Assembly: GCA_020832235.1 (NCBI GenBank) | Contig: JAFIEZ010000005.1 | Span: forward strand, 87,374-151,373 | Direction: 5' to 3' | DNA from: Bacteroidota bacterium | GTDB lineage: Bacteria > Bacteroidota > Rhodothermia > Balneolales > HLUCCA01 | Length of the DNA stretch: 64,000 nucleotides | Part shown: one piece after another, positions 12,361-49,071 of the stretch | Layout: each line of letters opens with the position of its first letter | How positions within the stretch are numbered: the first letter of the stretch is position 1 | Notes under the pieces: generated by a model | The model's input: the letters and a program-made list of their open reading frames with translations, nothing else | The model's database searches: none | Told to the model about the DNA's origin: nothing | Program-made: the position numbers and the translations under genes

Positions 12361-12404
12361 AAGACCAGCCTAAATGGTTTAGCGAAGATTCTGAATTTCT
12401 GAGC

Positions 12405-29798: not shown

Positions 29799-29803
29799 AG
29801 TTA

Positions 29804-32800
29804 TCAGGTACTCCTTTTGTCCTTCTTGAAGTCGATTTTGATGGTGGTGTCATCGTCGAGGTTGTGAGCGTAGTACAATGCCGGGAGGAAATGTCCCAAA
29901 TGACGCAGTGATGCACTGTCAACGGCTCGAATCTTGGCTAAGGCCATGGTTTCGGCGATGGTTGTAATGAGGTATTCATCGCTCCAGGGCTCATTGGTTC
30001 TTCCCCCATCGGGAGGTATGGCCAGTAATACGGCCTGTGCCGGCCGCGAGGCGGGCGCGTCGTAGTGGAAGGCTACAGCCGTGGTTTCGTTTTTGTTTGG
30101 AATTACTTCAACCCACTCGTCAATTAATAGTCCGCAAACCGGTAACGTGAAGTCGATGTTGCCCGAAACCGGCTGATGCAGTGCCAATGAAACACACCCA
30201 TTTGGATAAGGTTGCGCGTTTTTCTCGAGACCAATCCAGAGGTCCTGATCGGTAGCTTTCTTTCCGGAAATTTGCGATACCTGGAAATCGCCGCCATACT
30301 GCTGGTCGGTTTCTTTGAGGAAAATGAGGTCGTTTAGTCGCTGGAATCCCTTGCGGATTCTGCTCATCCGCATGCGCCAGGTATTTACGGCATATGGATT
30401 TGGTCCCAACAGTGACTTCCTTCGGTCGGAATCGAACGCCTCGGTCAGTTTGTCAGCTACATCTTCTTCGAGGGTAAATTTGGGCACATAGATAAACTGG
30501 TCGCCGAAAAGGAGCTTCGCCTGCGCGGTGAGCACTTCTTGCTGCGTCATTTCGCTGCCTGCACCGGCCAGGCGGTCAATTTCATCGATTATCTTAGCGG
30601 CCTGTTTCAGAACGGCGTACATCAACACGAGCATCTGCTCTTTTGGGATGAATTCTCCGACTACATCGCCCGCAAGAACACAGTCGTCAATGTTAAAGAA
30701 GGACAGCCTGTGTAACCTCGACTTGAGGTCGTCTATGTCGGCATCCTGTCCCGGATAACCGGGTTCAAAGTAAACCTTTGCCAACGCTTCCAGGTTTGCG
30801 GCACTGGGCAACTCATGTACATACACATCCGAGGTGACGGGCTCAATTTCCAGCATATCCCAGAATTGCGCGTTTACCTCGGAAACCTTAATGATGAAGG
30901 ACTGTCTGATGTGCGAATACTGGGCTTTGAAATCATCAATGATTGACGCTATCGCTGTGTCGTTTACATAGCTGACATTCAGGTCGTCTGCTATTTCGGG
31001 CAGGGTAACATCCGACGGCTCAAGCGCACGCGTATTGGCCAGCAGTTTTTGAACGACAATGAGGGTTTCCTGTAATTCAGCGAGGGACTTCTTGCCGTTA
31101 CTTGTTACTTCCGGCTCAATGGCGATTCGTGCACCCTGAAGCGATGGGGTGCCTGCATGCTGTTCCTGCGCGGTTTTAATCATTCGTTTTACTAACTCCG
31201 GAGCCTCGCCTGTGCCCATTCCGCCCATGAAAACGAGGTCAAGCGCACAGATGTTCAAATCATCGAGCGTTATGTCTGCCGTACCGGTCTCCTGATTATC
31301 GTCATCCAGAAACCGAATACGGACGGTGTAATCATCCGGTGAACCCAGCAGGTTTACAGCCCACGATTCCAGCGCCGGCTGAGCCTTCGCTTTAGGACTA
31401 TCGGCATTCCAGCTCAGGACTCCATCACCAGGGAACATCGACAAAACACGATAGATATTGGAGACTCCGGTGCGCGGCGTTTTGGTTACTTCGATTTCAG
31501 GGACGGTCACTTCACCGGCAGACAAAGCCTCCAGTGTTGCAACACTCCGCATCTGATTGCCTTGCACGCTTTGATGCACGCTTTCCGAGAGCAGCAGGTC
31601 ACTTAGGGCATCAATGGTATCGTGTAATTGCAGCAGCAGCTGCGCAAGCTTGGCCTTCTCTGAGGCGTTGCCCGGAGTAAAATCTACATCCTGTTGCGTG
31701 AGCAATTGCAGAAGTTGATCCAATGCAGCAGCCTCTCGTTGATCTGCAGAACCGTCGGCATTATCCCGATACGTGGACCACTTCTTGTTCAGTTTTAGTC
31801 CGTGAACCACATTTCGAGCGGATATGCTTTCGGTTGGAGATCCATCGGTTTCATCGGGCCCTGCCTCTTTTCGCAACAGCGGGAAGGCGAGTCGAAAGGG
31901 GTATATGAATCGCTGAAGCGCAGCTTCCTGCAATCCACGCTCGAATTGGTAGCCTAATAATGCTCCTAATGGTTGTCCTTGCCGTACTCCTTCAAGCAAT
32001 TGCAAAGCACGTTGGGTTCTTGCCGAGGACAGGTCAATGGACAACGGACTTTTACCTTCGACATCCTTGTACGTCAGATAACCGTTGTAGAGAACAGCTG
32101 CAGTTGCGGCGTGATTGAGCGACGGGGCATGAATGTACCCTTCCGATTTGCGCGACTCCCTCGGGGCGAGATTTTCGACGTATCCGTATCCGCCCAGGTA
32201 TAGTCCCTCGGAGTTTTGTTGGCGAAGCTGCTTGAGTTTTGCGGTTGCGATGGAGGTCACCCAGGCATCCAGTCTATGTGATGACAGGTCAATCGTTTCG
32301 GCCACTAAACGCGCTAATTCAGCCGTGCTTTTGGTAGCCAGATTGCGCAGTGCATCCTTCACTTCGTCGATGCGGCCGCTGTTGAAGCTGTCTGCAGTGG
32401 CTGAATTCAGGGCCCTCAAAGGGGTCTGATTGAGATACTTACCGCTCGTAATCAGCAACTCTGGCTCGGGAGGACGATTTTCAACCAGCCAGGGCAGTCC
32501 AACTTCGCTGTCAATAATGCCGTTCGTATACTCCCAAAGCAGCGAATGCCGCAGCATATGGTACAGGAGCGGGGTCGGATTTTCATGATCAAAATTCAGG
32601 GTATTATCCCTCAGATCGGCAATCAATTCTTCGTGACCCTGTTCACTCAGCCAGGCAATGTAATTGGTTTCGTAATGATCGCTCAGGGACTCATCTTCCC
32701 GGGGAGGCTTGCCTGAAACGATGGCCTCGTTAATGCTGAAATCACAAATGGCATGTAAACACCTCGCCAGAAACGGGGATAAATCAGGAAGTCCGGCTCG

Positions 32801-34342
32801 GGTCAGATTTTGCACGGATCGCTGCCGGCTTTCTTCAAAGAACGTCTGTAGAATTTGTGCCTCGTTGGCTGAAATCTCCCCCTTATTTTTGAAGAAAAAC
32901 AGATTCTGAAGGAAAACAGGTCCCATAACCGATCGCGCCTTAAACACAAGCGACAACGGATTCATGCTCAGCATATCCAGCAGATTCTTGCCCGGATCGC
33001 CTTCTCGGTGTATGCTTGGCACCCCGCGTACAGAGTCCTGCCAGACGGGATAAAGCTGGTGCAATATCTTCTTCAGCTGAATTTCATGAATCGAATCTTT
33101 GAACTGATCGCTAGGTACAGGAGGCGAAGATACAACGGGCATAACGGGTATCACACCATAAGGCTGATTGCCAATTCTGATAGCAGGCAATGGTCCCCGG
33201 CTTCTGACATTGTGCATGTAATGCTGCCGTAGCCAGGACATAAACGACGGATTTGCCGCCCTTCTGAACTCGGTAGCTTGCAACATCTGTGCAATATAAT
33301 ACTCCCAATTTCCGGCCCACATCGCGGTATTCATGTCGCGGGCGTTCGACTGTTCGGTCAATTCGGCGTTCTCCACATCGTGAAAGGGATAGTATGGATG
33401 ACGGACCTCCGTTGAGCCGGAAGGTAATCCAAAAGCGCGTGCCAGTTGTCCGGCATTCGAGTCAGCGCTCAATTCATCCGATGCTGAAGCGTTCAGGATT
33501 CGCTTAACGATATCCTCATAGTTGTGGTTGTGGAATCCATATCCCGAGGGAGCATCTTCGGTATTGTTGGTTGGCGTTCCCTGCTTTATGATGCCAAGTC
33601 CGGAGGTATAATGATGCGCCTCCATCAGTTGACGGAAGGATGTCGACCCGGTTTTGGTGTCGCTTTCGTGCCGAACTCCCAGAACAAACAACTGATCGAT
33701 GCCCTGTTCCACGTTCCCGAAATCAACGCCATACGGCACTTCCAGGGCCATACCAACACTCAGGGCCTCCTGATAATCTACCATCCATGTCAAGCCTTTA
33801 TCATCGCGTAGCGGATCGAAGCCATCGTCGACATCATCCACGGTTTCATCTTCACCAAGTACAGGACTCGGCCCTATAGCCAATTCGTTCGGGATTTTAT
33901 TACCGGTTACAGAAAACACCTTCTGTCCATTTCGGTAGCCTATGGCCGTCCAGTAATGCGGAAGTGCGTGCGTTACCGGCGCCTTGGTCCATGAATACTC
34001 CTTTTTGTTCCCGCTCAGTATATGCTCGCTCTGCTCCAGCACGCTTTTCGTAATCCATCCGGCCCTCTCAGGACCATAGCGATCGGCCAGGTCGGCCCAG
34101 GCACCCGGTAGTTTGTCGGAATCCGGGTCATCACGCAGCAGCTTTATAAAGACCAAACCGGCCTCAATTTCTTCCTCTGTAAGGTCGGTCTCGTGCGTGT
34201 TAACGTGGATGTCATCCGGCAGGACACGGATTTTGAGTTTATTATCCAAAAACCTGGTTTCAAGCCGTACCGGCAATAAAGCGATGGGCGTTTGAACGTT
34301 AAGCCGATCAAGATTGGGTATGTTGGAATGAATTTCTGGCAT
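29804..34342 (-). CDS. Giant-operon gene 4 (1512 aa), unknown function
   Basis: Uninterrupted 4.5-kb ORF starting 4 nt after the gene 3 stop. No signal peptide, TM segment or P-loop. Blocks 'ALLPVRLETRF', 'RGPLPAIRIGNQPYGVIPVMPV', 'SHRLDAWVTSIA', 'LGALLGYQFERGL'. Confidence 0.9.
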   Translation of the reverse strand: MPEIHSNIPNLDRLNVQTPIALLPVRLETRFLDNKLKIRVLPDDIHVNTHETDLTEEEIEAGLVFIKLLRDDPDSDKLPGAWADLADRYGPERAGWITKSVLEQSEHILSGNKKEYSWTKAPVTHALPHYWTAIGYRNGQKVFSVTGNKIPNELAIGPSPVLGEDETVDDVDDGFDPLRDDKGLTWMVDYQEALSVGMALEVPYGVDFGNVEQGIDQLFVLGVRHESDTKTGSTSFRQLMEAHHYTSGLGIIKQGTPTNNTEDAPSGYGFHNHNYEDIVKRILNASASDELSADSNAGQLARAFGLPSGSTEVRHPYYPFHDVENAELTEQSNARDMNTAMWAGNWEYYIAQMLQATEFRRAANPSFMSWLRQHYMHNVRSRGPLPAIRIGNQPYGVIPVMPVVSSPPVPSDQFKDSIHEIQLKKILHQLYPVWQDSVRGVPSIHREGDPGKNLLDMLSMNPLSLVFKARSVMGPVFLQNLFFFKNKGEISANEAQILQTFFEESRQRSVQNLTRAGLPDLSPFLARCLHAICDFSINEAIVSGKPPREDESLSDHYETNYIAWLSEQGHEELIADLRDNTLNFDHENPTPLLYHMLRHSLLWEYTNGIIDSEVGLPWLVENRPPEPELLITSGKYLNQTPLRALNSATADSFNSGRIDEVKDALRNLATKSTAELARLVAETIDLSSHRLDAWVTSIATAKLKQLRQQNSEGLYLGGYGYVENLAPRESRKSEGYIHAPSLNHAATAAVLYNGYLTYKDVEGKSPLSIDLSSARTQRALQLLEGVRQGQPLGALLGYQFERGLQEAALQRFIYPFRLAFPLLRKEAGPDETDGSPTESISARNVVHGLKLNKKWSTYRDNADGSADQREAAALDQLLQLLTQQDVDFTPGNASEKAKLAQLLLQLHDTIDALSDLLLSESVHQSVQGNQMRSVATLEALSAGEVTVPEIEVTKTPRTGVSNIYRVLSMFPGDGVLSWNADSPKAKAQPALESWAVNLLGSPDDYTVRIRFLDDDNQETGTADITLDDLNICALDLVFMGGMGTGEAPELVKRMIKTAQEQHAGTPSLQGARIAIEPEVTSNGKKSLAELQETLIVVQKLLANTRALEPSDVTLPEIADDLNVSYVNDTAIASIIDDFKAQYSHIRQSFIIKVSEVNAQFWDMLEIEPVTSDVYVHELPSAANLEALAKVYFEPGYPGQDADIDDLKSRLHRLSFFNIDDCVLAGDVVGEFIPKEQMLVLMYAVLKQAAKIIDEIDRLAGAGSEMTQQEVLTAQAKLLFGDQFIYVPKFTLEEDVADKLTEAFDSDRRKSLLGPNPYAVNTWRMRMSRIRKGFQRLNDLIFLKETDQQYGGDFQVSQISGKKATDQDLWIGLEKNAQPYPNGCVSLALHQPVSGNIDFTLPVCGLLIDEWVEVIPNKNETTAVAFHYDAPASRPAQAVLLAIPPDGGRTNEPWSDEYLITTIAETMALAKIRAVDSASLRHLGHFLPALYYAHNLDDDTTIKIDFKKDKRST

Positions 34343-34346
34343 TGGT

Positions 34347-37244
34347 TTAATCGTTAATCAAGCCATCTGCATGAATAGCAAACAACGTGGGCGTATTGTA
34401 AATAGACTTGGCTACATCGGCCGCATTTGGATTGGATTGTGCAAGTGTTGCGAAATCAATGTTTTGAGGCAGTTTGAAACTGAGATCGGAAACCGGCTCT
34501 TGCAACACGAAGAACCAGCCCTGATGATCAGCTGCGCCTTCATCGCTTATGACCTCATCGGGCGCCAGGTTGAATCCGAAAAAGGAGATGTCGGCCTCCA
34601 TCGATCCCTTGAAAATGGGCATTCTGATGTTGTTGTCGGTCGATGCGTCTGGAACTCTGTCGGTTGTGCCGATTCCGGTTTCTTCCGATTCCTTCGCTTT
34701 CACAGCATAAATAATGGTGTTAGGATATCGGCGCAGTAAATCTCCCCGAACCATCAAAACCAACGGGGTTGTAGAAACGTCGTCTTCCGAAGGGGAGGGA
34801 TGTTCACCCAGATGATCTCTCCAGCGATGGATGTAATCTATGTCTTTCATCCGGTCCGCATTCTGTTCGTCGGACAAATTTTCATCGGGTATGCTATCGC
34901 TGACATCCCAGAATTGACGGAAATACGTGGCCCTCAGTTCGGTTGGGAATCCCCTCCAAAGCAACTCTCGACCCATTTCGTGATTCACGCCCGTCATGTA
35001 CGATTCGATGAAGGCACGGTTTGCCTGGGCTATAGTAATGGTATTCTGGGGGATTTTCTCGAGCCCCGAAAGGATGTAATCTTTGGAGAGGTCGCGCAGG
35101 GCAATGTACATGGGCTGAGGAAAGTACGGTGCGGCTCGTATCGGTTCGATGGGATCGTTGGGGTCTGCAAGGTTGCCCGGTATGGAAATGCGACCTCTAA
35201 CCCGCTTGGGAATGGTCTTCACCGGATCCAGCTCCTGCAGCAGATGGGTTCGGATGCCGTTCAGATTTAGCTCTTTTTTTGGAGCCTTGGTTTCGGCGGG
35301 GGTGAAGTAGAGGTCGTCGAGGGTCTTGGCCGCTGCCTGCTGAAACGTAGTTCCACGTATGGTGACGGTCGCTGATCCATCGCCTTCGCCCATTGCAATG
35401 TCCATGCTGTCGGAGGCGTCTGTGTTTCGAATCGCGTCCCCGGTGTACGACTCCGGATTGAACTTATCGCGTAATGCATCGTTTGGGAGCCGGTCCCTCA
35501 GCCATTTAACTGCGTACGAGAACCCGAGCAAGAGTACAAAAACAACGAGGGCAATCGGAATGAGGTCAACAAATACGAGCAGGAAAAACAGGATTAACAA
35601 TCCAATCGCAATGGCGCGGACGATCTTCTTAATCTCGGCTACGTTGCCTTCCAGCCATTTTGGCACCGGAATAACGGGGATGGGAACCTCTGTCGACTCG
35701 GGGGTTACCATTCCATCGGGCGGGGTGTCGTCGGGTTCGGCACTAATTCGGCCCGAGTTGATGTCATCCATCAGTTTGGACACGCCATCCAATGCCTTAT
35801 CACCGAACAGACGTTTTGCGATAGCACCATTCGGACGAAACAATCGCTGGAAGGCGCCCGAGAAAAAGGCGGCGGGGATTCTTCCCGTTTCGAGGGTGCC
35901 TGCAACGGTTTGACCGTTATTCTCCTGGTCAATAACTCTCGACTGAACGGTGCGTGTGGCTTGCAAAAAGGAGGTCAGGGGCAGGTTTTTCAGATGCTTT
36001 TCGTGCAGCATGGTTCCGGCCGAGCGGGCGACCTGAGCCTGCTGGAAGTACTCGTTTACACTTTTCAAGTCACCAACCTGCTCCCAGGCCGAGTGCATGA
36101 GGTGTTCCTGGTCGTTTTGGATGACGTTGGTGCCGAGTCCGGCCGTTGCGCGATTTCGCGGGTCTTCATTCAGCGTGTTGAACCATATTCGGGAGGTTTC
36201 GTCAACATGCAGATGGTCCCGGTCTGCCTGGTTGTTTCCGTAGAGCGGCGGACCAAGCACGGGACCGGTAAAGTCCTCGGTTACGGGCTTGTTCAAGTAC
36301 TCCCGCAATTCAGATTGAATGGTAGAGGGATTTTCATCGCGATTAAATCCGGGTGGCACCAATGCGCTTTCAAACAGCACCGGTGAATGGTCCGAAAAAT
36401 CGAGCGTTGCTCCCGGACTGCTTACATCCATTTCCCGGGTTCCTACGCCATCCGGAAGCGGCCTCCCTCTCAATTGTCGAACCAACGTCTTGAAATCGCC
36501 CTTATCTCCGGTACCAAACTCCCAATGATAGTAAACCGGAAGGCGCAGCGAAACCTCGGAGCCTGTCCATGCCGGATCACTTTCGTCGCCGGTAAAGGCC
36601 TCTCCAAGTCCGGCCTTCACCCCGGACTTATACGCTGGCACCAGGAAAGCCTTGTATTTTTCGTTCGCATCCAACGCTTGCGGGCTAACAATGCGGGAAA
36701 TGAGCTTCTCGGGGGTCTGCTCCAGCAGAGCTTCCCAATTCGTGTTGCTGTCGGGCACGTCTTTATCGCCCTGAACATGTGCGAACGACCAGGCCTTGTT
36801 CAACGCCGGCAATCCGGAAGGGTTGTTTATCGTGAGGATGGGAAGCGGATTTCTGGGATTGTTGCTTACATCGGCATCGCTCGACTTTACCACAATCAGC
36901 ACAATCCACGGCCATAGTTTATCGCCATCCGGACTCACCGGCGTAAACATCCATGGAAAGTCAGGCCGGGAGAACTCAATGGCCACCAGATTGGTCGTTT
37001 CGAAATCATACACGTGTTTTTCCGGGGATGTACGGATAATCAGTCGTTGATCAATACCGATGATATCGCCGGGCCCATACGTGGATAAGTCCTTCGTTAG
37101 GGTCTCTTCAGAGGAGGTTGAGCCATCATCATTGCTGCGTTTAATGGTTAAACCCAGCGAAAGCCTGCCATCCGATGAGGACCCTGCCGCCAATCCCTTC
37201 CGAAGAAACGGGAACAGTTTGAATTCAGCTAAGATATCGTTCAT
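34347..37244 (-). CDS. Giant-operon gene 3 (965 aa), unknown function, central TM hairpin
   Basis: The start overlaps the gene 2 stop (ATGA). The hydrophobic stretch 'IVRAIAIGLLILFFLLVFVDLIPIALVVFVLLLGFSYAV' (aa 541-579, nt 35508-35624) splits two large soluble halves. Blocks 'YGPGDIIGID', 'PDFPWMFTP', 'LLWRGFPTELRATYFRQFWD', 'MVRGDLLRRYPNTIIYA'. Confidence 0.9.
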   Translation of the reverse strand: MNDILAEFKLFPFLRKGLAAGSSSDGRLSLGLTIKRSNDDGSTSSEETLTKDLSTYGPGDIIGIDQRLIIRTSPEKHVYDFETTNLVAIEFSRPDFPWMFTPVSPDGDKLWPWIVLIVVKSSDADVSNNPRNPLPILTINNPSGLPALNKAWSFAHVQGDKDVPDSNTNWEALLEQTPEKLISRIVSPQALDANEKYKAFLVPAYKSGVKAGLGEAFTGDESDPAWTGSEVSLRLPVYYHWEFGTGDKGDFKTLVRQLRGRPLPDGVGTREMDVSSPGATLDFSDHSPVLFESALVPPGFNRDENPSTIQSELREYLNKPVTEDFTGPVLGPPLYGNNQADRDHLHVDETSRIWFNTLNEDPRNRATAGLGTNVIQNDQEHLMHSAWEQVGDLKSVNEYFQQAQVARSAGTMLHEKHLKNLPLTSFLQATRTVQSRVIDQENNGQTVAGTLETGRIPAAFFSGAFQRLFRPNGAIAKRLFGDKALDGVSKLMDDINSGRISAEPDDTPPDGMVTPESTEVPIPVIPVPKWLEGNVAEIKKIVRAIAIGLLILFFLLVFVDLIPIALVVFVLLLGFSYAVKWLRDRLPNDALRDKFNPESYTGDAIRNTDASDSMDIAMGEGDGSATVTIRGTTFQQAAAKTLDDLYFTPAETKAPKKELNLNGIRTHLLQELDPVKTIPKRVRGRISIPGNLADPNDPIEPIRAAPYFPQPMYIALRDLSKDYILSGLEKIPQNTITIAQANRAFIESYMTGVNHEMGRELLWRGFPTELRATYFRQFWDVSDSIPDENLSDEQNADRMKDIDYIHRWRDHLGEHPSPSEDDVSTTPLVLMVRGDLLRRYPNTIIYAVKAKESEETGIGTTDRVPDASTDNNIRMPIFKGSMEADISFFGFNLAPDEVISDEGAADHQGWFFVLQEPVSDLSFKLPQNIDFATLAQSNPNAADVAKSIYNTPTLFAIHADGLIND

Positions 37245-40200
37245 GGCAAGAGTTCATTTTGGTCAACGACCTGGTGTGTGTTTTGGCCATCCATCTGGCG
37301 AAGTTTTTGTGCTGTTTCAGCGTAGCTGCCTGCCGTAAAGTCGACCGGCTGCATGGACTGCTTGTCGGTAATGGCATAGGCTTTTTCCTTCAGTTGAATT
37401 CCCATGGATGGAGCGTTGTACCGGGCGAATCCTGTTTTTGTGAGGCTTTTGCCAATAGCGGCGCGGTTGCGATTCATCACCGTCTGGAACTTAGGATGCA
37501 GGGTCAGTTTGAGTGCCAGCGGCACATCCTGCGGACCATCCACCACAATTTGCTCATATTCCAGCGTTTTCAGGGTGCCATCGGGGGCAACGGCGGTGCT
37601 GGACTGAATCTCGGCACCGGCGGTAAACGACTCAAACGAAGGACGTGAAAGCTTTTCCTTATCGGTTAGCGACAAAAACTGAGCAGGGGCAAAGTACTCT
37701 TTGGTTTCGCGGAAGGAGGCATCGTTGCTGTTGGACGTTATGCCCTCAATGCGGAATGTTCGGGCCCCGGTTGGCAGCGCATTCCCGAATTTCTCGATTT
37801 CCAGGTTAAAAGGAACAACCTGCTGCCGGAACTGAATAACGCCAAGAGGATGCACTTTTTCTGAACTTCCCTCTTTGAACATCACGAAGGCATCATCCTT
37901 TGATGGGAGCTCGGCATACCAGTTATCATCGGCTTCAAGCGCACTTTTGAGCAGAGGCCAGACATCGGCGCTCGGCAGTTCTTCCGGCTTCTTCTTGCCA
38001 ATGGTAAGATCAAAGGAAATGGATCCCTTGAACAGGAGAATTTTGATGGTGGCCTTGCCTTTTGCCCTCCATTGGTTGGGACCGGACAGGGTAAACGAAA
38101 CCGACAGTCCCATAATGTGCTTCGATTTTCTTCGCAAAGCCACCGATCCATACACATCTACGATGAAATAAAACGGCGAAAACTGAAAGAGAGCATCGAA
38201 ACCCAGGGTTCCGGTAACATTCCAGTTACCCGCTGCCGCGTATAGGTCGAGCCGGGCTCCGACCTGGGCTGTGTTCGAGGTCAGTGCCAGGTAGGCCTCC
38301 AGCCGCATTTTGGGATTGTTTCCCGAGGACAGGCTAATGGCCAGTCGATCAAGTTCCGGAAAAGCCGGCGGTCTATTAAATGCAGGATGCATGCCTCCCA
38401 ATGAGAGCGCAAACGCGGGTTTATTCCCGTATTTCATGCGCATTGCCATATCGCCCGAAAGCGTGTATAGCGTTAATCGGGAGTCGAACAGGGTTGCGTC
38501 AATGGATATGGTTTTCTCGCCAAAATCAATCACTCCCAGCATATCCAGGTTGATTTTCACCAACGCGGCCTGTTCGGTAGGTAAGGCCATCCGGATTCTG
38601 CCCAGAATAATCAGGCGCAGCGGTGATGGCATATCCAGCAGTACACCCAGCTCAATGGTCAATATTTTTGGTGTTCCCCAGGTGATGGAGGCCATGGGAC
38701 CAAAAACGTAGCGGCTTTGCTGCACCGGGAATATGGAGCCGAGGCTGCTGATGAGTGCCGGGGCGTTGTTCACCGGATCTTGCGGGAAGAGAATGCTGCC
38801 CAGACTGTTGGTGCGTAATCCTTCGCGCATCGCCTCTACCAGTACATTGCGGTGGGCGCCAAACAATCCGCCGACTTTTGAAAGACTAAAGCCAAAGCCC
38901 AGCTGGATGGATGGTGTGAATTCAGCGGTGATGATGAGCAGCAGTGAGTAGCCCTTGGATCCATCCGGCATTTTGGTGTTGAGAATCCCGATGGCGTTGA
39001 GTCCCACTTTGGCAAACTCGAGCTGCAGCACTCCCGCATATTCGCCCTTATCGGGATTAAAACTGAGGAAACCTCCACCGGTGACCGCTCCGGTATCTAT
39101 GGTTAAGCCAATGGCGGATGGGGGCCTGAACGAAAGGCTGAGTCCGTAGCTGTCGTTCGAGGACCCATGAAAATTGAGCACATTGAAGGTATCGGGGTCG
39201 GTTCGTCGGCCTATGCTTGCCTTTAGTCCCAGTCCGTCAACCGACATGGCCAGGGGACCGAGTTTGACATTTCCGGTGAGCAGGGCCTCAATATCCAGCT
39301 CCTGATTGGTAAATGCCCCCGATAATTGAATGGTGCTGACATTAAGCAGGCTCGAAGGGGAGCCGGTATTCAGGGAAATGGTCGTAGATAAGTCATTCCC
39401 ATTCTGAAAATACAGGCCGTTTTGGTCGTTGAAGCCGAATACGATATCAAAGGTATTCTGTAAGCCATTCTCCGGCAGTATCGTAGCGATGAAGCCGTCG
39501 GGATTGTCAGGTTGCAGCGAAAAAGCGACATCCTTCAACTGAAATCGAATATCGTAGGATTTATCGTCGTTTTCGACCTCGAGTTTGGCCCCGAGATCCA
39601 TCCCGTTAAACGTTATGTTTGCAAGTCCGGGCAGCGAAAACAGGGAATGACCGGGCGGAGGGGCGATGTACGTCAGGTTTGATGCGACCGACAGTTCTGT
39701 TGATATAGCCCCGTCGTTGAGGTTGACGGTTCTGAATCTGTTATCGGTAAACTCGATGGCGGCGTCCAGATCTGCTGAAAGAGATGATTGCAGGGCCCAT
39801 TTCAACGTGTTGGACAGGGTTCTTTCGAAATTTAAGCCCGCGTTGCCGAAGAAGTTTAGTCGGAGCCCGGACTGGTCGCTTTGATCGCTGTAGCCTGACA
39901 GAAACGCGCCGAGCTCGGCAGTCTGGGGCGGGGTGTTGTTCTGTAATAATGTAAGTCTGATGGCGTTGGATGTAAACTCGTCATCAATCAGTTGAATCAG
40001 TTCTACGTTTTCGGTCAGGTTGGTTAGTGCGGAATACAGCCTGATAATCAGGTAATCCGGATTGAAAGATGAAGAGTTCGTGTCAAAAATATTGCCCAGC
40101 TCTTGTAATGGATCCTGAATTATCTCGGCGATTCTGGAAAATTCGATTTTTTGTCTTTCCGAGCTGTCGGTTGTAATCAGCCCCGCGAAAACGGATGCGT

Positions 40201-40645
40201 GATACACGGATGGATGGTGCCTTTTAAGAAACTCTACCGCCAGGTAATCGAAGATTTTGCCAAGAATAACATCAGGCGGGTCGGCCTCGGGATCGGTGGT
40301 ATTCAGGTTGTTCTTTAGCTCGTATAAGTGATCCAGCGATTGTTCGATCGTTTGGATGAAATCACCGTTTCCGGACTCATGACTTGACCAAATATCACCT
40401 ATCAACTCTATGGAAGCGAGGGTTTGTTCAGCGATCAGGGTAGCATTTCCCATATTCACCTTGGCGGCCTCGAGAAAATTGAGCGTCAGGCTGAGTTTAT
40501 TGGTAGAGATGATTTCCGACTCACCCGTGGTAACATCATGCAAGGGTACTTCAAACGTAACAGGTGTGCTCCTTGCAATAGTGGTAATCGGCTCGAAAAA
40601 CTTCTCGAACTGTTCTAGAATGTTCTCAACGCTGGACTGACTCAT
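37241..40645 (-). CDS. Giant-operon gene 2 (1134 aa), unknown function; helical N-terminus and a large beta-rich module
   Basis: Uninterrupted 3.4-kb ORF starting 12 nt after the gene 1 stop. G/S/L-rich beta-like segments include 'GVLQLEFAKVGLNAIGIL', 'QLGFGFSLSKVGGLFG', 'LSLGGMHPAFNRPPAFPELDRLAISL' and 'TGTLGFDALFQFSPFYFIVDVYGSVAL'. From memory this resembles the DUF6603 type; that is unverified. Confidence 0.9.
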   Translation of the reverse strand: MSQSSVENILEQFEKFFEPITTIARSTPVTFEVPLHDVTTGESEIISTNKLSLTLNFLEAAKVNMGNATLIAEQTLASIELIGDIWSSHESGNGDFIQTIEQSLDHLYELKNNLNTTDPEADPPDVILGKIFDYLAVEFLKRHHPSVYHASVFAGLITTDSSERQKIEFSRIAEIIQDPLQELGNIFDTNSSSFNPDYLIIRLYSALTNLTENVELIQLIDDEFTSNAIRLTLLQNNTPPQTAELGAFLSGYSDQSDQSGLRLNFFGNAGLNFERTLSNTLKWALQSSLSADLDAAIEFTDNRFRTVNLNDGAISTELSVASNLTYIAPPPGHSLFSLPGLANITFNGMDLGAKLEVENDDKSYDIRFQLKDVAFSLQPDNPDGFIATILPENGLQNTFDIVFGFNDQNGLYFQNGNDLSTTISLNTGSPSSLLNVSTIQLSGAFTNQELDIEALLTGNVKLGPLAMSVDGLGLKASIGRRTDPDTFNVLNFHGSSNDSYGLSLSFRPPSAIGLTIDTGAVTGGGFLSFNPDKGEYAGVLQLEFAKVGLNAIGILNTKMPDGSKGYSLLLIITAEFTPSIQLGFGFSLSKVGGLFGAHRNVLVEAMREGLRTNSLGSILFPQDPVNNAPALISSLGSIFPVQQSRYVFGPMASITWGTPKILTIELGVLLDMPSPLRLIILGRIRMALPTEQAALVKINLDMLGVIDFGEKTISIDATLFDSRLTLYTLSGDMAMRMKYGNKPAFALSLGGMHPAFNRPPAFPELDRLAISLSSGNNPKMRLEAYLALTSNTAQVGARLDLYAAAGNWNVTGTLGFDALFQFSPFYFIVDVYGSVALRRKSKHIMGLSVSFTLSGPNQWRAKGKATIKILLFKGSISFDLTIGKKKPEELPSADVWPLLKSALEADDNWYAELPSKDDAFVMFKEGSSEKVHPLGVIQFRQQVVPFNLEIEKFGNALPTGARTFRIEGITSNSNDASFRETKEYFAPAQFLSLTDKEKLSRPSFESFTAGAEIQSSTAVAPDGTLKTLEYEQIVVDGPQDVPLALKLTLHPKFQTVMNRNRAAIGKSLTKTGFARYNAPSMGIQLKEKAYAITDKQSMQPVDFTAGSYAETAQKLRQMDGQNTHQVVDQNELLP

Positions 40646-40657
40646 TCGTGCTCTTGT

Positions 40658-42586
40658 TTAAGATTTATAGTATTCCAATAACTTTACCTGGTCGTCGCCT
40701 TCACCAATGACTGCAGTCATTTGATACCATTTTCCTACTAATTCATCCATTTCGTCATTATCTCGAGATATTGAGGTTTCTCCGTTTGAAAAGAGCCTTC
40801 TCATATCCTCTCTATCTAAAAAGTCCTCATGAGATCCACCATTCTCTATTGGTCCGACATCGAAATGCGTTGTGAAACTTCTCTGCAGCCATCGGTGATG
40901 AACGCCATCAATCTCTCTGAAAGGTTGAAATAAAACAGAGAAAGTGTATCTGCCTGTTTTCAATGAAAAGTTGAGCGGATTTAAAAATGTCTGCATCCTG
41001 TTTATTTGTTCTTCCAGTGCAATTTGTGGATCAGGATGATCAAAGTTGTAGGCTACATGGTCCGGCTCATTATTTTTTGTGGCAGCTATAATCCCTTTTG
41101 TTCCGAAGTAGCAATAGTCTGCAAACTGTTCATAAACACTTCGTTGACCTCGTGAGATCAAGGCACTTCCAATTAATGCAAGTGTTGAAATGATTAAGCT
41201 AGCAACCCAAAATTTTGGCCCGCCAGCTATGGAAAGAACTCGCATATAAGCTCCAAGACTGAAAGACATTACAGAGCCTGAAACGACAACTAAATTCCCG
41301 ATGATAACCATGTTTTCACCGTAAATCGCAGCGTAATGTATATTTCGGCCGGCAATTACAATGTCAATTACCACAATGATGAATCCAAGTCCTAAACCTA
41401 TTCTCTTTCCGTTTAACTTTCTGTTACTTCCAGTCTTTAGACGTTTCGTAACATTCTCAGTAATAACATTAACAGCGTTAACAGCCTTTTTTACATCTTC
41501 AGCACTAATATTTTCTTCATTATTAAAACTAGATGCAATTACTATGGTTGATTTAGCTCCTGCAATGATAGACAAGGCGTCAAAAGCAAGGCCCACCATA
41601 GTGCCTAACTTCGTTTCGAACTTAGATATCTCTTCGGCTAAATCTTCATCAGTTGTTGCATTGTTAAACGCTTCTATTGCACTTGCTGGGAGTACTAACA
41701 AGAATAATTCATTAACAATATCTTGTGCACTATCTGTCAGTCCATGGGTAAGATCATTCTCAACGGTTGACCGATACAGAAGCGACATCCATACAAATGG
41801 AATCACATCTTTAGCAAAATAACTCAACAGGGTGAATGCACTTACTACAGGTGCACTGTTTGTGGCGGGTATACTAGCCGCTATATCCCTTTGGAATTGC
41901 TCACCAAGTTCAGCATCAGCAAAATTAAGAACAGGAACTCCGTTAGGGTCTTCATCAACCTTTACGCCAATGTCACCAATTATTCCCTTAATTCTTGGAA
42001 TTTCAAGTAACTCTCCGGACAGTGTCGAGGTTTCCTTTAAGTAGTCAATTCCTGTTTCAGTATAACCCAAAGCACCAATTACGGTGTTGAGGAATTGGAT
42101 TTTGGCAACAGTATTAAGCTCGTCGAATGCTGAAAGCAAGTCACCAGTTTTAACATTAGTGATTATGCTGTTCGTGTAGAATTCCATCAGGTTTTCAATC
42201 GTAAACTCAAATTCTTCAAAAGGTTTGCTTTTACTTTGGTCTAGACTACTACGAAATTTGGATAAAATTTCGCTACCATCTTCACCACTTGACTCCAAGG
42301 CTTCCGTAAAACTTTTTATTGACTGGAGTAATCTGATTTTTTCTTTTCGATTAGAATCAGCATCAAAACGTAAGCGCCCTGAATTTACGTTAATGTGTTG
42401 TTCCATGTCGCTTTCAGAGGAATTGAAAACTTTTTTTAACAGCTCATCTTTAACACTTTTTTCGGGGTCATGACGTATTTCCAAGCCTGTATTCAAATAC
42501 TTGATGTGCAAATCAAGGATATACTCAATTTCAATTGCCATCAGCACAGTGGCTGACAAACGTTGTGATCCGGTTGTATTACTCAT
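40658..42586 (-). CDS. Giant-operon gene 1 (642 aa), unknown function, helical protein with a clustered TM/glycine-zipper-like region
   Basis: ORF visibly AT-richer than genes 2-5. Hydrophobic cluster at aa ~395-478 (nt 41153-41404): 'IGLGLGFIIVVIDIVIAG', 'MVIIGNLVVVSGSVMSFSLGAYM', 'FWVASLIISTLALIGSALI'. The start may instead be the internal ATG at 42541. Confidence 0.85.
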   Translation of the reverse strand: MSNTTGSQRLSATVLMAIEIEYILDLHIKYLNTGLEIRHDPEKSVKDELLKKVFNSSESDMEQHINVNSGRLRFDADSNRKEKIRLLQSIKSFTEALESSGEDGSEILSKFRSSLDQSKSKPFEEFEFTIENLMEFYTNSIITNVKTGDLLSAFDELNTVAKIQFLNTVIGALGYTETGIDYLKETSTLSGELLEIPRIKGIIGDIGVKVDEDPNGVPVLNFADAELGEQFQRDIAASIPATNSAPVVSAFTLLSYFAKDVIPFVWMSLLYRSTVENDLTHGLTDSAQDIVNELFLLVLPASAIEAFNNATTDEDLAEEISKFETKLGTMVGLAFDALSIIAGAKSTIVIASSFNNEENISAEDVKKAVNAVNVITENVTKRLKTGSNRKLNGKRIGLGLGFIIVVIDIVIAGRNIHYAAIYGENMVIIGNLVVVSGSVMSFSLGAYMRVLSIAGGPKFWVASLIISTLALIGSALISRGQRSVYEQFADYCYFGTKGIIAATKNNEPDHVAYNFDHPDPQIALEEQINRMQTFLNPLNFSLKTGRYTFSVLFQPFREIDGVHHRWLQRSFTTHFDVGPIENGGSHEDFLDREDMRRLFSNGETSISRDNDEMDELVGKWYQMTAVIGEGDDQVKLLEYYKS

Positions 42587-44759: not shown

Positions 44760-46973
44760 CTATCCAATCACTCTTTCAAATACTCCAACAACTCTGAAAT
44801 TGACTATTCCTTCTTCTATAAGCACTATTTCTTTATACCTATCTTCACTTGATAGTGGCTTCAATATGATAGATGTATGCGCCCAATCATCGTTAGAATC
44901 GTTTTTTACACTTTGATACTCTTTAACTGTGTACCCAGAACCAAAATCTGCGTCATGAATATCAGAGGACTCTACTAAAACGATTTTACCATTTCTTGAA
45001 CCTCCTGAATAACGTCTGAATAAACAATATGAACCATTAGGAATACGCTTATTCATGGACTCCCCGACAACTTTACAGATAAAGTCCCCTTCACGTATTG
45101 ATATGCCCTCTGGTGCAGTGACCCAGTTTAGCTCCGAGTGAAGTTGATTTTCCGAAAAATTGCCCGCAGCAGCCTGAATGTCGACCAGTGGCACCGCATT
45201 TTCATAAGGTTTTACTTTATCGAAGTCCAATATTTCAAAGACGGATGCTTCTGGCTTTTGTTTCTTGGTTGTACTCTTAACAGATGCATCACTTTTTATA
45301 TGAGCGCTTAAATAGTCTCGTAGATCAGGATCGCATGCGTAAACCAAAGTTCCCTTAATGCCACGGTACATGATTGTTTTGTAGATGTTAACTATGTATT
45401 CTTTCAAGTGCTCATCGTTATCTATACCGGCACTTCCATTTCGATCATAGTAGTTTTGTCGGATGATTTCAATCCGATTTAAAGGTTTGTTGTACGTAAT
45501 CTCCTTGCCGAAGATAATTCCGGCGTAGTTTAAATCATATCCCTGCGTTGTGTGAATACAGCCTACTTCGAGCTCTGCGTTGGCTGAGTTAATCCAGTCG
45601 ATATTTACGTTGTTCCACTGTAATTCTTGTCCTTCAATTACAATGTCGTACTTACTTTTGTCCTCTTTTGAAATCCAGGACCAGGAATATCCGGCAATAA
45701 GACGACATAGCCCCATTTGCTTTTCTTTGGCTACGATTTCATTGTGAAATTCACGGAAAGAGGTAAACAGTCGGAAATCATAGTCATCAGGAATGGATAA
45801 ACCCTGTAAAGGTTGACATTTTAAGAGACGATCAACAAAGTTGATGTAGTCATTGCCTGCAGAAACCCGCATTTGCGAGGTAAGTTTAATGGGCTTAATC
45901 GATTGGCTTTTTATTGCTTGAAAACGTTCTTTTGGGATGTCAGATGGCTTTATGGATTGTGCTTCATCATAAAAGAATATCTGCTGTTTACTGTTCATTA
46001 AAATCCAATCAAGCTGGGTGCCCTCGTTTCCTAAGCCCATTAAACGGTTAGTAGCGTCAAATGATCCATAATTAGGAATGTTCTTTCTACGAGCAAGGCG
46101 ATGCGCTTCATCCACGATGAGAATGTCATACTTCTTTTTTACAACATCGGATGGACCTATGACCATATTGGCACTTAGACCCCCTATCGCTCGGAAAACA
46201 GTTTTTAGACTTCCTCGAAGTGAAGTCATGGGTACTACCAACCCAATATTCACATCTTTAAATCGCTGTTGAAACGTCTCTAATAAACGATACTCCTGCA
46301 GACGATACCCCTCAAGGTCTTCAATTTCATCCGGTGCCGGAAGCGGCGAATGCAAAAGCTTCATCAAATATGTTGCAAGAATGGTTTTTCCGGTTCCTGC
46401 ACTTCCTTCAACAAAGAGATTTGGTTGCTGACGGCTGTTTAATGCGTTAATAATCTCCATCACGGAAGATCGTTGGTCATCTGACAGCGCTTTGTAAGGT
46501 GAGTATTTGAATAAATCGGAGTTCTCGATTTCTTCTATAGACTTGCTAACTAACTTTTCACTTCTTAGTCGGTTCCAGATTTCCTCAAATAATTCCCGAT
46601 ATAGTGGTTTTTCGTAGTAGTTGTGATGGGTTAAGCCCCCATTTCCGTTTTGGAGGATGTATGTATTCTCGGCAGAGAGATATTGGATAAGCTGAGATTC
46701 AATGTCTAATGTTGCTGATTTATTAAAACGGTCAGAACCAATCAAGGTAATGGTATTCAATACCGTGCGGTCATCATTAGCGAAGTGATTCTTTATGCGA
46801 TTGTAAGCATTGGTGGTTTCCCCAACATACGCCAATTTACGAGAGTCATTCTTAATGATGTAAACCAGAGGCCACTGACTCTTGACCCATTTATTTTCTG
46901 CAATTTCAGAGAATGCATTTTTATTGAAAGGGTACCTCGCTAAATCAACAACGATGTTCGTACCGAGGCTCAT
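44760..46973 (-). CDS. GIY-YIG nuclease / DUF2075-type P-loop NTPase / LexA-like S24 peptidase fusion protein
   Basis: N-terminal GIY-YIG-like 'LVYIIKNDSRKLAYVGETTNAYNRIKNH...LDIESQLI'. Walker A 'VEGSAGTGKTILATYL'. Walker B 'YDILIVDEAHRL'. C-terminal 'VPLVDIQAAAGNF...VVGESMNKRIPNGSYCLF...GKIVLVES...YTVKEY', which is LexA/UmuD-like. Confidence 0.8.
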   Translation of the reverse strand: MSLGTNIVVDLARYPFNKNAFSEIAENKWVKSQWPLVYIIKNDSRKLAYVGETTNAYNRIKNHFANDDRTVLNTITLIGSDRFNKSATLDIESQLIQYLSAENTYILQNGNGGLTHHNYYEKPLYRELFEEIWNRLRSEKLVSKSIEEIENSDLFKYSPYKALSDDQRSSVMEIINALNSRQQPNLFVEGSAGTGKTILATYLMKLLHSPLPAPDEIEDLEGYRLQEYRLLETFQQRFKDVNIGLVVPMTSLRGSLKTVFRAIGGLSANMVIGPSDVVKKKYDILIVDEAHRLARRKNIPNYGSFDATNRLMGLGNEGTQLDWILMNSKQQIFFYDEAQSIKPSDIPKERFQAIKSQSIKPIKLTSQMRVSAGNDYINFVDRLLKCQPLQGLSIPDDYDFRLFTSFREFHNEIVAKEKQMGLCRLIAGYSWSWISKEDKSKYDIVIEGQELQWNNVNIDWINSANAELEVGCIHTTQGYDLNYAGIIFGKEITYNKPLNRIEIIRQNYYDRNGSAGIDNDEHLKEYIVNIYKTIMYRGIKGTLVYACDPDLRDYLSAHIKSDASVKSTTKKQKPEASVFEILDFDKVKPYENAVPLVDIQAAAGNFSENQLHSELNWVTAPEGISIREGDFICKVVGESMNKRIPNGSYCLFRRYSGGSRNGKIVLVESSDIHDADFGSGYTVKEYQSVKNDSNDDWAHTSIILKPLSSEDRYKEIVLIEEGIVNFRVVGVFERVIG

Positions 46974-47299
46974 AGCTCATCATATTTCTTGGCTGTTCCT
47001 TTCGCTTTTTCGATGGGGTATTTCTTCCCGTTTCGCTCCACTTTCTCAGCGACGATATCATAGACATCGAACTGATACTTATCTGCTAGTAAAAACGCAT
47101 AAGCAAATACATCAGCCAACTCCTCCTTTACTTTATTAACATTGGCATCCTCGGCATTTTTCCATAGATAAGCCTCTAATAGTTCACCAGATTCAATGTT
47201 CAATGCAATTGCCAAATCCTTCGGGTTGTGAAATTGTGCCCAATCTCTCTGGTCTCTGAATTCAATCAATTTTTCCGTTAGCTTTTTGATATCGCTCAT
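46970..47299 (-). CDS. MazG-like nucleoside triphosphate pyrophosphohydrolase (small all-alpha NTP-PPase)
   Basis: 109 aa. 'FRDQRDWAQFHNPKDLAIALNIESGELLEAYLWK...EELADVFAYAFLLADKYQFD...KVERNGKKYP'. The stop overlaps the start of the DUF2075 gene (ATGA). Confidence 0.85.
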   Translation of the reverse strand: MSDIKKLTEKLIEFRDQRDWAQFHNPKDLAIALNIESGELLEAYLWKNAEDANVNKVKEELADVFAYAFLLADKYQFDVYDIVAEKVERNGKKYPIEKAKGTAKKYDEL

Positions 47300-47532: not shown

Positions 47533-49071
47533 CTAATGACGTAAAAGAAGTTGACGACCTTTGTCGGTCAGACGGTACTTTTGGAGCCGACTTTTTGGTT
47601 TATCGGGAATCGTCATCTCTACGAGCTCGAATTCCAAGGCTGGCTGCAAGTATCGATCGCGAAAGTTAGCTTGGCTTTGAAGATTCATGGCAATTTGTAA
47701 TTGTGTCCGTGACACGGTCTGATCAGACAAATACTTGATTAATGCCATTACTTCATCTGTTACTTCGAGTGGCACATATGGGGTGACTTCACCTGTGACT
47801 TCACCTGTGACTCCTCTATAACTCTTCGAAGCGGGTTCGTACCTATCTGGTGAGGGCGTCCATTTTCTCCAAATAGTTGTAATCCAGAATCCACCTTCGA
47901 TTCGGATTTCAGGTTCGCGAAGCCCTGCCTCATTACATCGCGTTATCATATCACGGATTCCCGTGCCCATACGCTCAATATACTTGGTGAGATATAGCGG
48001 TTCGGCAATCAAAGGGTTATGCGGTACAGAACCGTGGGGCTGTCGAAGCATTTCCACAGTGAGACTTGGAGGCAGGGAACCCGGATTCCATACTTCCAAT
48101 CGGTCTTTAAAGAGCATCACCTGTACACTGCCATTGCTGGTGTAATCACGGTGACAAATAGCATTGACGATGGCTTCCGAAACTACTTCTTGTGGAATTT
48201 CATAGGAAGTTGGTACCTGAACTCCTTGAGAACGGTCACCGGTCCACAAGTCAATTTTGGACAGTACAAAGTCCTTTGACTGATCAATTAGGTCAAATAA
48301 TGTCCCTTTATACACCTGGTAGGACGGTATTGGCTTTTCTATATCGAAGCCATGAAACCTAGCGCATTTTACCTCCGAGCTGATTACAAAATGCTGTGGA
48401 GACTTGCCAAACAATAGTATGGCAGCATGCGTTGGACGAGATTTGTCAAGTAAGTTAAGATGTGTGAGTACCTCAATGGGCTGTGTCCCATCCGCAAGTG
48501 GGAAACTGCGTGCATTCCGCGCATGGATTAGAAACCGGTTGATTTTGTCGTTATCAAGATCATCTATACTTGCATTACGGCACCAAGTGGCATCAAACGG
48601 AGTATAACGGATGATTTCGCGTTCCTCTAGGATTCTAATCAGGCTGGCATAAACTGCAGAAACAAGTTCTTCAGATGCATTAAACCTTCGGCGAATTAAT
48701 GATGCGCCCGCTTCGTCAATCAAGGTTGACATTTTCGGGTGTCTGCCGGCATTTCCAGACCCTTTTACAAATATCAAGCGAGTCTTACCCAGCCGTGTAG
48801 CCTCCCGAAATTCGTGATGTGTTGGAGAGAGTCCGTTTTCATCTTGCCACCCATATTCATTACCGAATATGCCCAGATAGAGGTCACAACGTGCGACTTC
48901 ATCGAGGTATGTCGTATCAGCGCGTTTATCTGCAGCTGGGACATCCTCAAACAAAAAAACATCGAAAAATTTACGTAGCAGAGCATCTCCAATTAGAAAA
49001 TCCCGTATAGCGCGACGTTCGTCGGCTAGTTCTTTTTGCACACTACTGATAAATATGCGAAGTACGGTCAT
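47533..49071 (-). CDS. DUF4062 / AlbA_2 (Schlafen-like) / HATPase_c_4 / wHTH protein (RecG-like 'putative DNA-binding' family)
   Basis: N-terminal 'RIFISSVQKELADERRAIRDFL...CDLYLGIFGNEYG' is DUF4062-like. 'PTHAAILLFGKSPQHF' is AlbA_2-like. 'EAIVNAICHRDYTSNGSVQVMLFKDRLEVWNPGSLP' is HATPase_c_4-like. The C-terminal tail is wHTH-like. Confidence 0.8.
   Translation of the reverse strand: MTVLRIFISSVQKELADERRAIRDFLIGDALLRKFFDVFLFEDVPAADKRADTTYLDEVARCDLYLGIFGNEYGWQDENGLSPTHHEFREATRLGKTRLIFVKGSGNAGRHPKMSTLIDEAGASLIRRRFNASEELVSAVYASLIRILEEREIIRYTPFDATWCRNASIDDLDNDKINRFLIHARNARSFPLADGTQPIEVLTHLNLLDKSRPTHAAILLFGKSPQHFVISSEVKCARFHGFDIEKPIPSYQVYKGTLFDLIDQSKDFVLSKIDLWTGDRSQGVQVPTSYEIPQEVVSEAIVNAICHRDYTSNGSVQVMLFKDRLEVWNPGSLPPSLTVEMLRQPHGSVPHNPLIAEPLYLTKYIERMGTGIRDMITRCNEAGLREPEIRIEGGFWITTIWRKWTPSPDRYEPASKSYRGVTGEVTGEVTPYVPLEVTDEVMALIKYLSDQTVSRTQLQIAMNLQSQANFRDRYLQPALEFELVEMTIPDKPKSRLQKYRLTDKGRQLLLRH

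Follow-up and report, generated by a model that had tools for sequence, protein, structure and literature searches.

A predicted LexA/UmuD-type self-cleavage module on a Bacteroidota GIY-YIG nuclease-helicase: a possible damage-triggered off switch

The stretch of DNA analysed here, referred to as the window, comprises 64,000 nucleotides from a Bacteroidota bacterium (GenBank assembly GCA_020832235.1, contig JAFIEZ010000005.1, positions 87,374 to 151,373 of the forward strand). An open reading frame (ORF) at 44760..46973 on the minus strand of the window encodes a protein of 737 residues, in which a GIY-YIG nuclease is followed by a superfamily 1B (SF1B) helicase of the DUF2075 or Schlafen-group-3 type, a linker and a C-terminal module of the Peptidase_S24 type found in LexA, UmuD and phage lambda cI. 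The protein is identical to protein P0001 of public Bacteroidota assemblies, which comes from a metagenome-assembled genome. Directly upstream lies a gene for a MazG-like nucleoside triphosphate (NTP) pyrophosphatase of 109 residues (46970..47299, minus strand), the stop codon of which overlaps the start of the nuclease-helicase gene by 4 nucleotides. All features of the nuclease-helicase gene described below lie on the minus strand and are given in window coordinates.

The nuclease domain occupies approximately residues 9-120 (46614..46949) and matched the Pfam family PF01541 with 32.5 bits, against a gathering cut-off of 22.6; the same region was also matched by the PADLOC PDC-S14 model and by homing-endonuclease models. 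The helicase core, approximately residues 163-556 (45306..46487), was defined by the Pfam family PF09848 (SLFN-g3_helicase/DUF2075, E 3.3e-56, residues 186-548) together with structural comparison. The AlphaFold model of the whole protein had a mean predicted local distance difference test (pLDDT) score of 80.9, and the Foldseek matches to it were the SF1B helicases Upf1, RecD2, RecD, SLFN11, nsp13 and Dda. A Walker A motif, GSAGTGKT, is found at residues 190-197 (46383..46406) and a Walker B motif, DEAH, at residues 288-291 (46101..46112). A preliminary description of the window had labelled this body a DUF2075 NTPase joined to a nuclease, and both labels are borne out by the Pfam matches. 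Conservation was measured over 71 complete orthologues from Bacteroidota plus the query (n=72). The nuclease residues Y38, Y49, G51 (of the motif Y49-V50-G51), R59, E92 and N109 are invariant in this set (72/72), as are G195, K196 and T197 of the Walker A motif and D288 and E289 of the Walker B motif. The linker that follows (residues 557-588, 45210..45305) is poorly conserved, with a mean identity of 37%, and residues 567-577 within it have pLDDT values below 50 in the whole-protein model; the tail-less variants described below end in this segment.

The C-terminal module extends from residue 589 to residue 737 (44763..45209), as judged from sequence, profile and model. The preliminary description had placed a complete LexA/UmuD-type self-cleavage module at 44763..45194, fused to the nuclease-NTPase. 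Those coordinates do correspond to residues 594-737 and a complete module is what was found, with the correction that the domain begins earlier, at about residue 589 (window position 45209). The predicted scissile bond is Ala603-Gly604 in the sequence VPLVDIQAAA-GNFS (45162..45167, with the Ala603 codon at 45165-45167 and the Gly604 codon at 45162-45164), the predicted nucleophile is Ser639 in GESM (45057..45059) and the predicted general base is Lys684 in YTVK (44922..44924). The codon positions of all four residues were confirmed by hand on the DNA.

The assignment of the tail to the S24 family was examined with several profile comparisons. Peptidase_S24 (PF00717) matched the isolated tail with 33.3 bits (E 4.4e-8) and the whole protein with 28.4 bits, where the gathering cut-off is 23.3. 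A profile built from 16 tails and searched against the PDB matched the LexA of Thermotoga maritima (3k2z, E 2.7e-4) and, weakly, the C-terminal domain of Escherichia coli LexA (8gms). In these alignments AAAG falls on the Ala-Gly site of LexA and GESM on GESM or GMSM, and the alignment ends before the lysine. Comparison of the same profile with the C-terminal domains of E. coli LexA, UmuD and lambda cI using hhalign gave a probability of 93.8% (E 1.8e-7) and placed A603-G604 on A84-G85, S639 on S119 and K684 on K156 (LexA numbering), the YTVK of the tail aligning with the TVK of all three references. The register of the lysine depends on the LexA, UmuD and cI reference sequences, in which the catalytic positions were verified by counting, and the PDB-derived alignments independently support the scissile site and the serine. 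The Ser/Lys dyad and the Ala-Gly site, for which the preliminary description had proposed alignment to S24 profiles as a check, are all in register with LexA. Relative to the references the tail carries insertions of approximately 8 residues before the TVK strand and approximately 9 after it. A single-sequence phmmer search of the PDB with the tail returned only noise (best match poxvirus rpo18, E 0.13), and no NCBIfam model matched the tail.

An AlphaFold model of residues 573-737 was obtained with a pLDDT of 84.3 and a predicted template modelling (pTM) score of 0.80. The six best Foldseek matches to this model in the PDB are all LexA (3k2z, 3k3r), lambda cI (2ho0/3bdn) or UmuD/UmuD' (8gmt/1umu), with S26 signal peptidases ranking next. 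For the UmuD matches the target-normalised template modelling (TM) score was 0.72-0.77 and the root-mean-square deviation was approximately 4 Å over 115 columns. The only stretch of low confidence within the module, in this model and in that of the whole protein, is the loop containing the scissile bond (residues 601-611, pLDDT <50 in the whole-protein model), which fits the mobile cleavage loop of LexA and proves nothing by itself. Ala603, Ser639 and Lys684 are conserved in 72/72 sequences and Gly604 in 71/72. Because profile, fold, register and conservation agree, the tail is very probably an intact S24 domain and is predicted to be catalytically competent.

Identity with the known carriers of this fold was considered and rejected. 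The protein is not a LexA proper, as it contains no helix-turn-helix (HTH) domain and its N-terminal 556 residues are assigned by Pfam to GIY-YIG and helicase; nor is it a UmuD, as the domain sits in a protein of 737 residues and has MazG-like and RibD_C genes as neighbours, with no umuC among them. The module shares the fold and the layout of LexA, UmuD and cI, with the Ala-Gly site approximately 35 residues before the serine of G-x-S-M and the lysine approximately 45 residues after it. Its cargo, in contrast, is a nuclease-helicase, where LexA and cI carry an HTH domain and UmuD is a polymerase subunit. The subtype to which the tail belongs can be written as xAAGxF - 36 aa - GxSM - 44 aa - [YF]T[VIL]K, with a conserved VKPY-N-VPL lead-in. 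Two cysteines, C633 and C650, flank the catalytic serine in the contexts F-x-C-x-V-x-G-E-S-M and G-S-x-C-L-F; neither varies among the close orthologues that were aligned, C650 is in addition invariant across 64 divergent carriers of the module, and they have no equivalent in LexA.

The conservation of the tail was compared with that of the other domains. Mean identity to the query was 62% for the S24 module, 60% for the GIY-YIG domain and 55% for the helicase. With 62% identity for the S24 module against 55% for the helicase, the tail is under a constraint at least equal to that on the enzymatic core, and under strong purifying selection. The whole protein has 6594 relatives at E <1e-10, and among the best 120 almost every one shares this three-domain layout, at a length of about 730 residues. 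A scan of one genome per species found relatives of the tail in 457 genomes, the best 80 of which belong almost entirely to the Bacteroidota, among them Flavobacterium, Pedobacter, Chitinophaga, Sediminibacterium, Marivirga, Indibacter and Aquirufa. At two of these 80 loci (L071 and L078) the match to the nuclease-helicase ends early, covering query residues 1-478 and 1-684, and these may be pseudogenes or assembly errors. A collection of plasmids gave one match, on the 1.8-Mb replicon NZ_CP040452.1 of the gammaproteobacterium Halomonas sp. PA16-9 (L092, 4986..7456), where there is no annotation. The helicase and the module are here in separate frames, a DUF2075 helicase ORF of 686 residues overlapping an S24 ORF of 159 residues by 70 nucleotides, which may reflect a frameshift, an error in the sequence or a gene divided in two.

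The body also occurs without the tail. Six relatives with 70-80% identity in the body (P0044-46, P0049, P0058 and P0097) terminate at differing points of the linker and retain all catalytic motifs. For P0044 (L009, 828..2549) and P0097 (L011, 146..1828) the contigs contain a genuine stop codon well inside the sequence, and in both loci the MazG-like gene is retained upstream while unrelated genes follow downstream. The tail is evidently an optional addition, as the nuclease-helicase exists and persists without it. Because the tail-less relatives are intact and have kept the partner gene, the tail does not serve as a lock that a toxic enzyme could not do without.

The distribution of this S24 subtype beyond the nuclease-helicase was determined by a profile search with the tail in approximately 15 billion proteins clustered at 50% identity, each cluster being entered through a single representative. 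At E <=1e-3 there were 1904 matching representatives, of which 201 reached E <=1e-30, and the best 150 (P0121-P0270), 64 long (at least 300 residues) and 86 short, were analysed with Pfam. They range from about 100 to 1490 residues in length and share the subtype signature, and PF00717 also matches 58 of the 64 long and 83 of the 86 short proteins. An HTH domain was found in only 2/86 short representatives. The long representatives carry unrelated N-terminal enzymes, with serine and lysine invariant across all 64. DUF2075 helicases with varied N-termini account for 17/64, Type_ISP_C occurs in 8 representatives together with Eco57I and N6_Mtase domains, and 6 are SNF2/ResIII-DUF3427 helicases. 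Type I HsdR carriers are marked by T1RH-like_C, EcoEI_R_C and HSDR_N domains, and further carriers include one MmeI-like enzyme, one McrC-like, one RE_endonuc and one LlaJI-like protein, and PLD, MrfA-MZB and Schlafen AlbA_2 proteins. The subtype occurs almost exclusively on restriction and defence enzymes, and the same tail has been attached repeatedly to DNA-cutting enzymes in place of the usual HTH domain.

One carrier, P0151, is a Type II endonuclease of the XhoI/PaeR7I family. On its metagenome contig (L093, 90..3033) the XhoI fusion directly follows an N6 methylase gene at a distance of 8 nucleotides, and the two therefore form a classical Type II restriction-modification pair. A second XhoI-S24 copy is 62% identical; the tail is present in 2 of the top 120 relatives of PaeR7I/XhoI and absent from the other 118. 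The module is C-terminal in 108/115 representatives and internal in a few. In P0239 (906 residues) and P0200 (260 residues), which are HsdR proteins, it occupies approximately residues 44-204 inside the N-terminal nuclease domain, the insertion point lying between the first helix (EADARLVIDELLRQAGWD) and the D..EAK catalytic core. Because the module is inserted within this domain, self-cleavage in P0239 and P0200 would split the nuclease. The module is also internal in P0203, P0228 and P0260, where it is followed by approximately 200 residues containing two copies of a repeat of about 90 residues (RDAAIRELAxxLGYxRTGSRI) that has no Pfam assignment; P0203 and P0228 carry Type ISP specificity domains.

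The residues before the predicted cut are also shared among the carriers. The glycine is preceded by [A/V/I/L/F/P]-A-A in 108/115 representatives, such that cleavage would expose an -AA-COOH end, and in 104/115 the predicted end of the cleaved body is AAA, VAA or IAA-COOH. In the literature searched, which covered few subscription journals and included work on Nhi, the study of Millman et al., the MDRE screen, BREX, DefensePredictor and bacterial Schlafens, no account was found of DUF2075 proteins or restriction enzymes that carry an S24 module. The fusion architecture is already present in databases but uninterpreted, and some members of the family have been named automatically by JGI as 'DUF2075 family protein/SOS-response transcriptional repressor LexA'.

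The MazG-like partner is related to DCTPP1/RS21-C6 (PF12643, E 1.9e-18), and its best PDB matches are the pyrophosphatase 4qgp (E 3e-17) and dCTP pyrophosphatase 1 (6sqw, 2a3q, E 2.8e-15). One possibility is that it removes modified or normal dCTP or dUTP pools. Of the 71 complete orthologous loci, 68 have this gene directly next to the nuclease-helicase gene, as do all contexts that were inspected. The outer flanks differ between genomes; among the genes found there are Thoeris ThsA/ThsB, a HigB-like toxin-antitoxin pair, and Fic and Bro-N genes. Since the pair is conserved while its flanks vary, the locus behaves as a mobile two-gene cassette of the defence-island kind.

Analogy and genomic context suggest that this cassette may be a defence system. 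The closest parallels are Nhi of Staphylococcus epidermidis (SERP2475) and the Nhi-like proteins (Millman et al. 2022), single anti-phage proteins that also combine an N-terminal nuclease with a DUF2075/SF1B helicase. The S24 tail and the obligatory MazG-like partner found here are described for neither of them. There was no full-length PADLOC system match for the 737-residue protein, and membership of Nhi, AbiO or any PDC candidate was rejected because the profile match was partial and weak. By analogy, the protein may work like Nhi without being Nhi itself. A second parallel is human SLFN11 and the group III Schlafens, whose helicase belongs to the same Pfam family (PF09848), SLFN11 also being among the structural matches; SLFN11 has been linked to single-stranded DNA (ssDNA) and replication stress. 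Unlike SLFN11, the window protein has no Schlafen RNase domain, its effector is a GIY-YIG domain of DNase type, and a link to DNA damage would run through the S24 tail.

A RecA-responsive family of S24 regulators operates in Bacteroidetes, with the SOS operator CTAA-N5-TTAG (PMC8565304), and the window was scanned for this operator. None was found in the 233-nucleotide region upstream of the operon. The window as a whole contains 11 matches with at most one mismatch, where 16 would be expected by chance. One perfect match is located at 12370..12382, 10 nucleotides upstream of a sodium/sulfate symporter gene (10843..12360, minus strand), and it is probably fortuitous because the matches in the window are fewer than the chance expectation. 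The scan is no argument for or against transcriptional SOS control.

Two other features of the window were recorded. Beside the cassette, at 47533..49071 on the minus strand, a gene encodes a protein of 512 residues with DUF4062 and HATPase_c_4 domains and a Fic-like C-terminal winged HTH domain. PADLOC models of proteins associated with prokaryotic Argonaute (pAgo) match its middle part weakly. Proteins similar to it, described as 'Schlafen-type RNase plus minimal histidine kinase plus wHTH', are found near BREX loci, and the gene may be a second one with a role in defence. At 28092..42586, also on the minus strand, are five tightly packed and very large genes encoding 568, 1512, 965, 1134 and 642 residues. 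These gave one Pfam match, to DUF6603 (E 7e-135), the others having no significant match in Pfam or PADLOC.

The reading favoured here, with a probability of about 0.4, is that the tail is a damage-triggered off switch. The body (residues 1-556), a Nhi-like combination of GIY-YIG nuclease and SF1B helicase, would be co-transcribed with the DCTPP1-like MazG pyrophosphatase, and the tail would act on it as a post-translational switch, read by RecA-ssDNA filaments as in LexA, UmuD and lambda cI. When host DNA is damaged or recombining, Ser639, activated by Lys684, would cut the Ala603-Gly604 bond of its own chain, separating the nuclease-helicase from the tail and turning the enzyme off. The cleaved body would end in DIQAAA-COOH, resembling the C-degron exposed in LexA, and would be removed by proteases of the ClpXP type. 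The outcome would be a built-in restriction alleviation that protects the host chromosome. The parts of this reading differ in strength. Regulated self-cleavage of the tail is likely, and the established behaviour of the S24 family suggests that the cut would fall between A603 and G604. For the RecA filament as the trigger, where the family is again the guide, the chances are about even. Degradation of the cleaved body is proposed by analogy with known C-degrons.

Two known systems resemble parts of this scheme. Restriction alleviation of EcoKI proceeds by ClpXP degradation of HsdR (PMC11109961) and shares the proposed logic, the proteolytic removal of a DNA-cutting enzyme at a time when host DNA is vulnerable (PMC11109961); the HsdR subunits among the carriers of the S24 subtype provide a further link to Type I alleviation. 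The likeness is an analogy only, as in EcoKI the translocating enzyme is recognised by ClpXP and no S24 domain is involved, whereas in the present case sensor and cutter would both be part of the enzyme itself. The second is degron exposure in the N-terminal fragment of LexA and in IrvR and HdiR of Streptococcus mutans. A passage of PMC5742171 (citing Neher 2003 and Niu 2010) describes, for LexA and LexA-like proteins, ClpXP C-degrons beside the cleavage site that become active only after autocleavage. The A-A before the cut in the window protein and in the 108/115 representatives lies at the same position as these C-degrons. What is degraded in those cases is a repressor domain, and here it would be an enzyme with a putative IQAAA-COOH degron.

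The preference for inactivation over activation draws on four arguments. Carriers guided by methylation act at DNA entry and would gain nothing from a late, RecA-dependent activation, and restriction enzymes have a documented need for restraint once DNA has been damaged or has recombined. It is also more economical to assume that the module does the same thing in each of its carriers. The persistence of tail-less forms indicates that the tail is not an essential lock. Finally, the -AA-COOH ends predicted for 108/115 representatives sit where LexA-like proteins hide their ClpXP C-degrons. None of these arguments is decisive. Extended to the whole clade, the subtype could be a portable 'SOS fuse' on unrelated DNA-cutting enzymes, contact with RecA leading to a self-cut, an -AA-COOH degron and destruction of the enzyme, and so to a restriction alleviation that is independent of LexA, dependent on RecA and preventive of autoimmunity; this wider proposal is speculative and on balance somewhat doubtful.

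The main alternative, which is the functional proposal of the preliminary description, reverses the direction of the switch. The tail would then hold the enzyme inactive until RecA-ssDNA, arising from phage intermediates or from damage, induced self-cleavage, and the released enzyme would degrade phage DNA or kill the cell by abortive infection. The intact and conserved S24 module is as expected under activation, and the catalytic motifs kept by the tail-less forms indicate that a body resembling the cleaved product is probably active. Nhi has been proposed to act on phage replication intermediates, with the single-stranded DNA-binding (SSB) protein of the phage protecting against it, SLFN11, from the same helicase family, has been reported to be activated by ssDNA, and effectors gated by a protease are common in defence systems. 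Against this, the same module is found on XhoI with its methylase and on Type I, Type ISP and McrC-like enzymes, which must act at DNA entry and before RecA filaments form, and classical restriction enzymes distinguish self by methylation and need no activation triggered by infection. The tail-less variants persist, which argues that the body is not toxic enough to require a lock, and an enzyme activated during ordinary host damage would attack the cell's own repair intermediates. Activation is accordingly judged unlikely.

The remaining explanations question the cut, its trigger or the domain itself. A structural role, with cleavage incidental or absent, would be in keeping with the reported dimerisation of Nhi and with the many restriction enzymes that are dimers or need two copies, but a binding or dimerisation domain would not need all three elements, and the Ala-Gly site, the serine and the lysine are essentially invariant in the 72 orthologues, serine and lysine also in the 64 divergent fusions. 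The cleavage loop and the segment preceding it moreover belong to the conserved module, and such a role is considered improbable. Self-processing independent of RecA, either as constitutive maturation or prompted by a different signal, for example pH, some other stress or a phage protein, as for the LexA-like IrvR, is given a similarly low standing. The insertions flanking the lysine strand (approximately 8 residues before TVK and 9 after) and the module's own conserved N-terminal segment mean that its partner surface may differ from that of LexA; however, LexA, UmuD, cI, HdiR and the Bacteroidetes LexA all respond to RecA filaments (PMC8565304), and each of the fusion partners acts on DNA, in keeping with a signal of DNA damage. 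A chance resemblance, or a decayed and inactive S24 remnant, would agree with the non-significant single-sequence PDB search and the missing NCBIfam match, yet it is refuted by the Pfam score above cut-off, the LexA profile match, the in-register hhalign probability of 93.8%, the S24 fold and the strict conservation, and its probability is negligible.

Several points weigh against the damage-triggered off switch. The cleavage, its trigger and its direction are all inferred, from sequence, models and analogy, and the cleavage loop was modelled at low confidence in both AlphaFold models. Autocleavage of the S24 protein IrvR need not depend on RecA (PMC7101444). Ala-Ala-Gly is general to sites of the LexA type, and the -AA-COOH end may therefore be no degron but a consequence of protease specificity. 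The tail-less relatives are presumably active, which would equally agree with a cut that sets an active enzyme free. That the cassette has a role in defence is drawn from analogy and context, and the parallel with Nhi is limited in two respects. The PADLOC Nhi and AbiO profiles match only residues 280-385 of the helicase (E 6e-11 and 1e-9), and the nuclease of the window protein is of the GIY-YIG type, whereas the discussion section of the Nhi paper groups the Nhi nuclease with enzymes of the PD-(D/E)xK type.

S24 autopeptidases are textbook switches, and to our knowledge they are known almost only on repressors and UmuD. The tail described here combines this known chemistry and known kind of switch with a new class of cargo, and a new biological role is plausible. 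The S24 chemistry appears to control enzymes directly, across a wide range of restriction and defence nucleases. If the damage-triggered off switch is correct, it would offer a simple answer to the old problem of what holds back DNA-cutting immune enzymes while the host chromosome is damaged, undergoes recombination or lacks methylation for a time. If the switch instead turns the enzyme on, it would be an infection sensor of a new kind, with RecA filaments as its input. In either direction the module would be a compact, transferable and damage-responsive protein switch.

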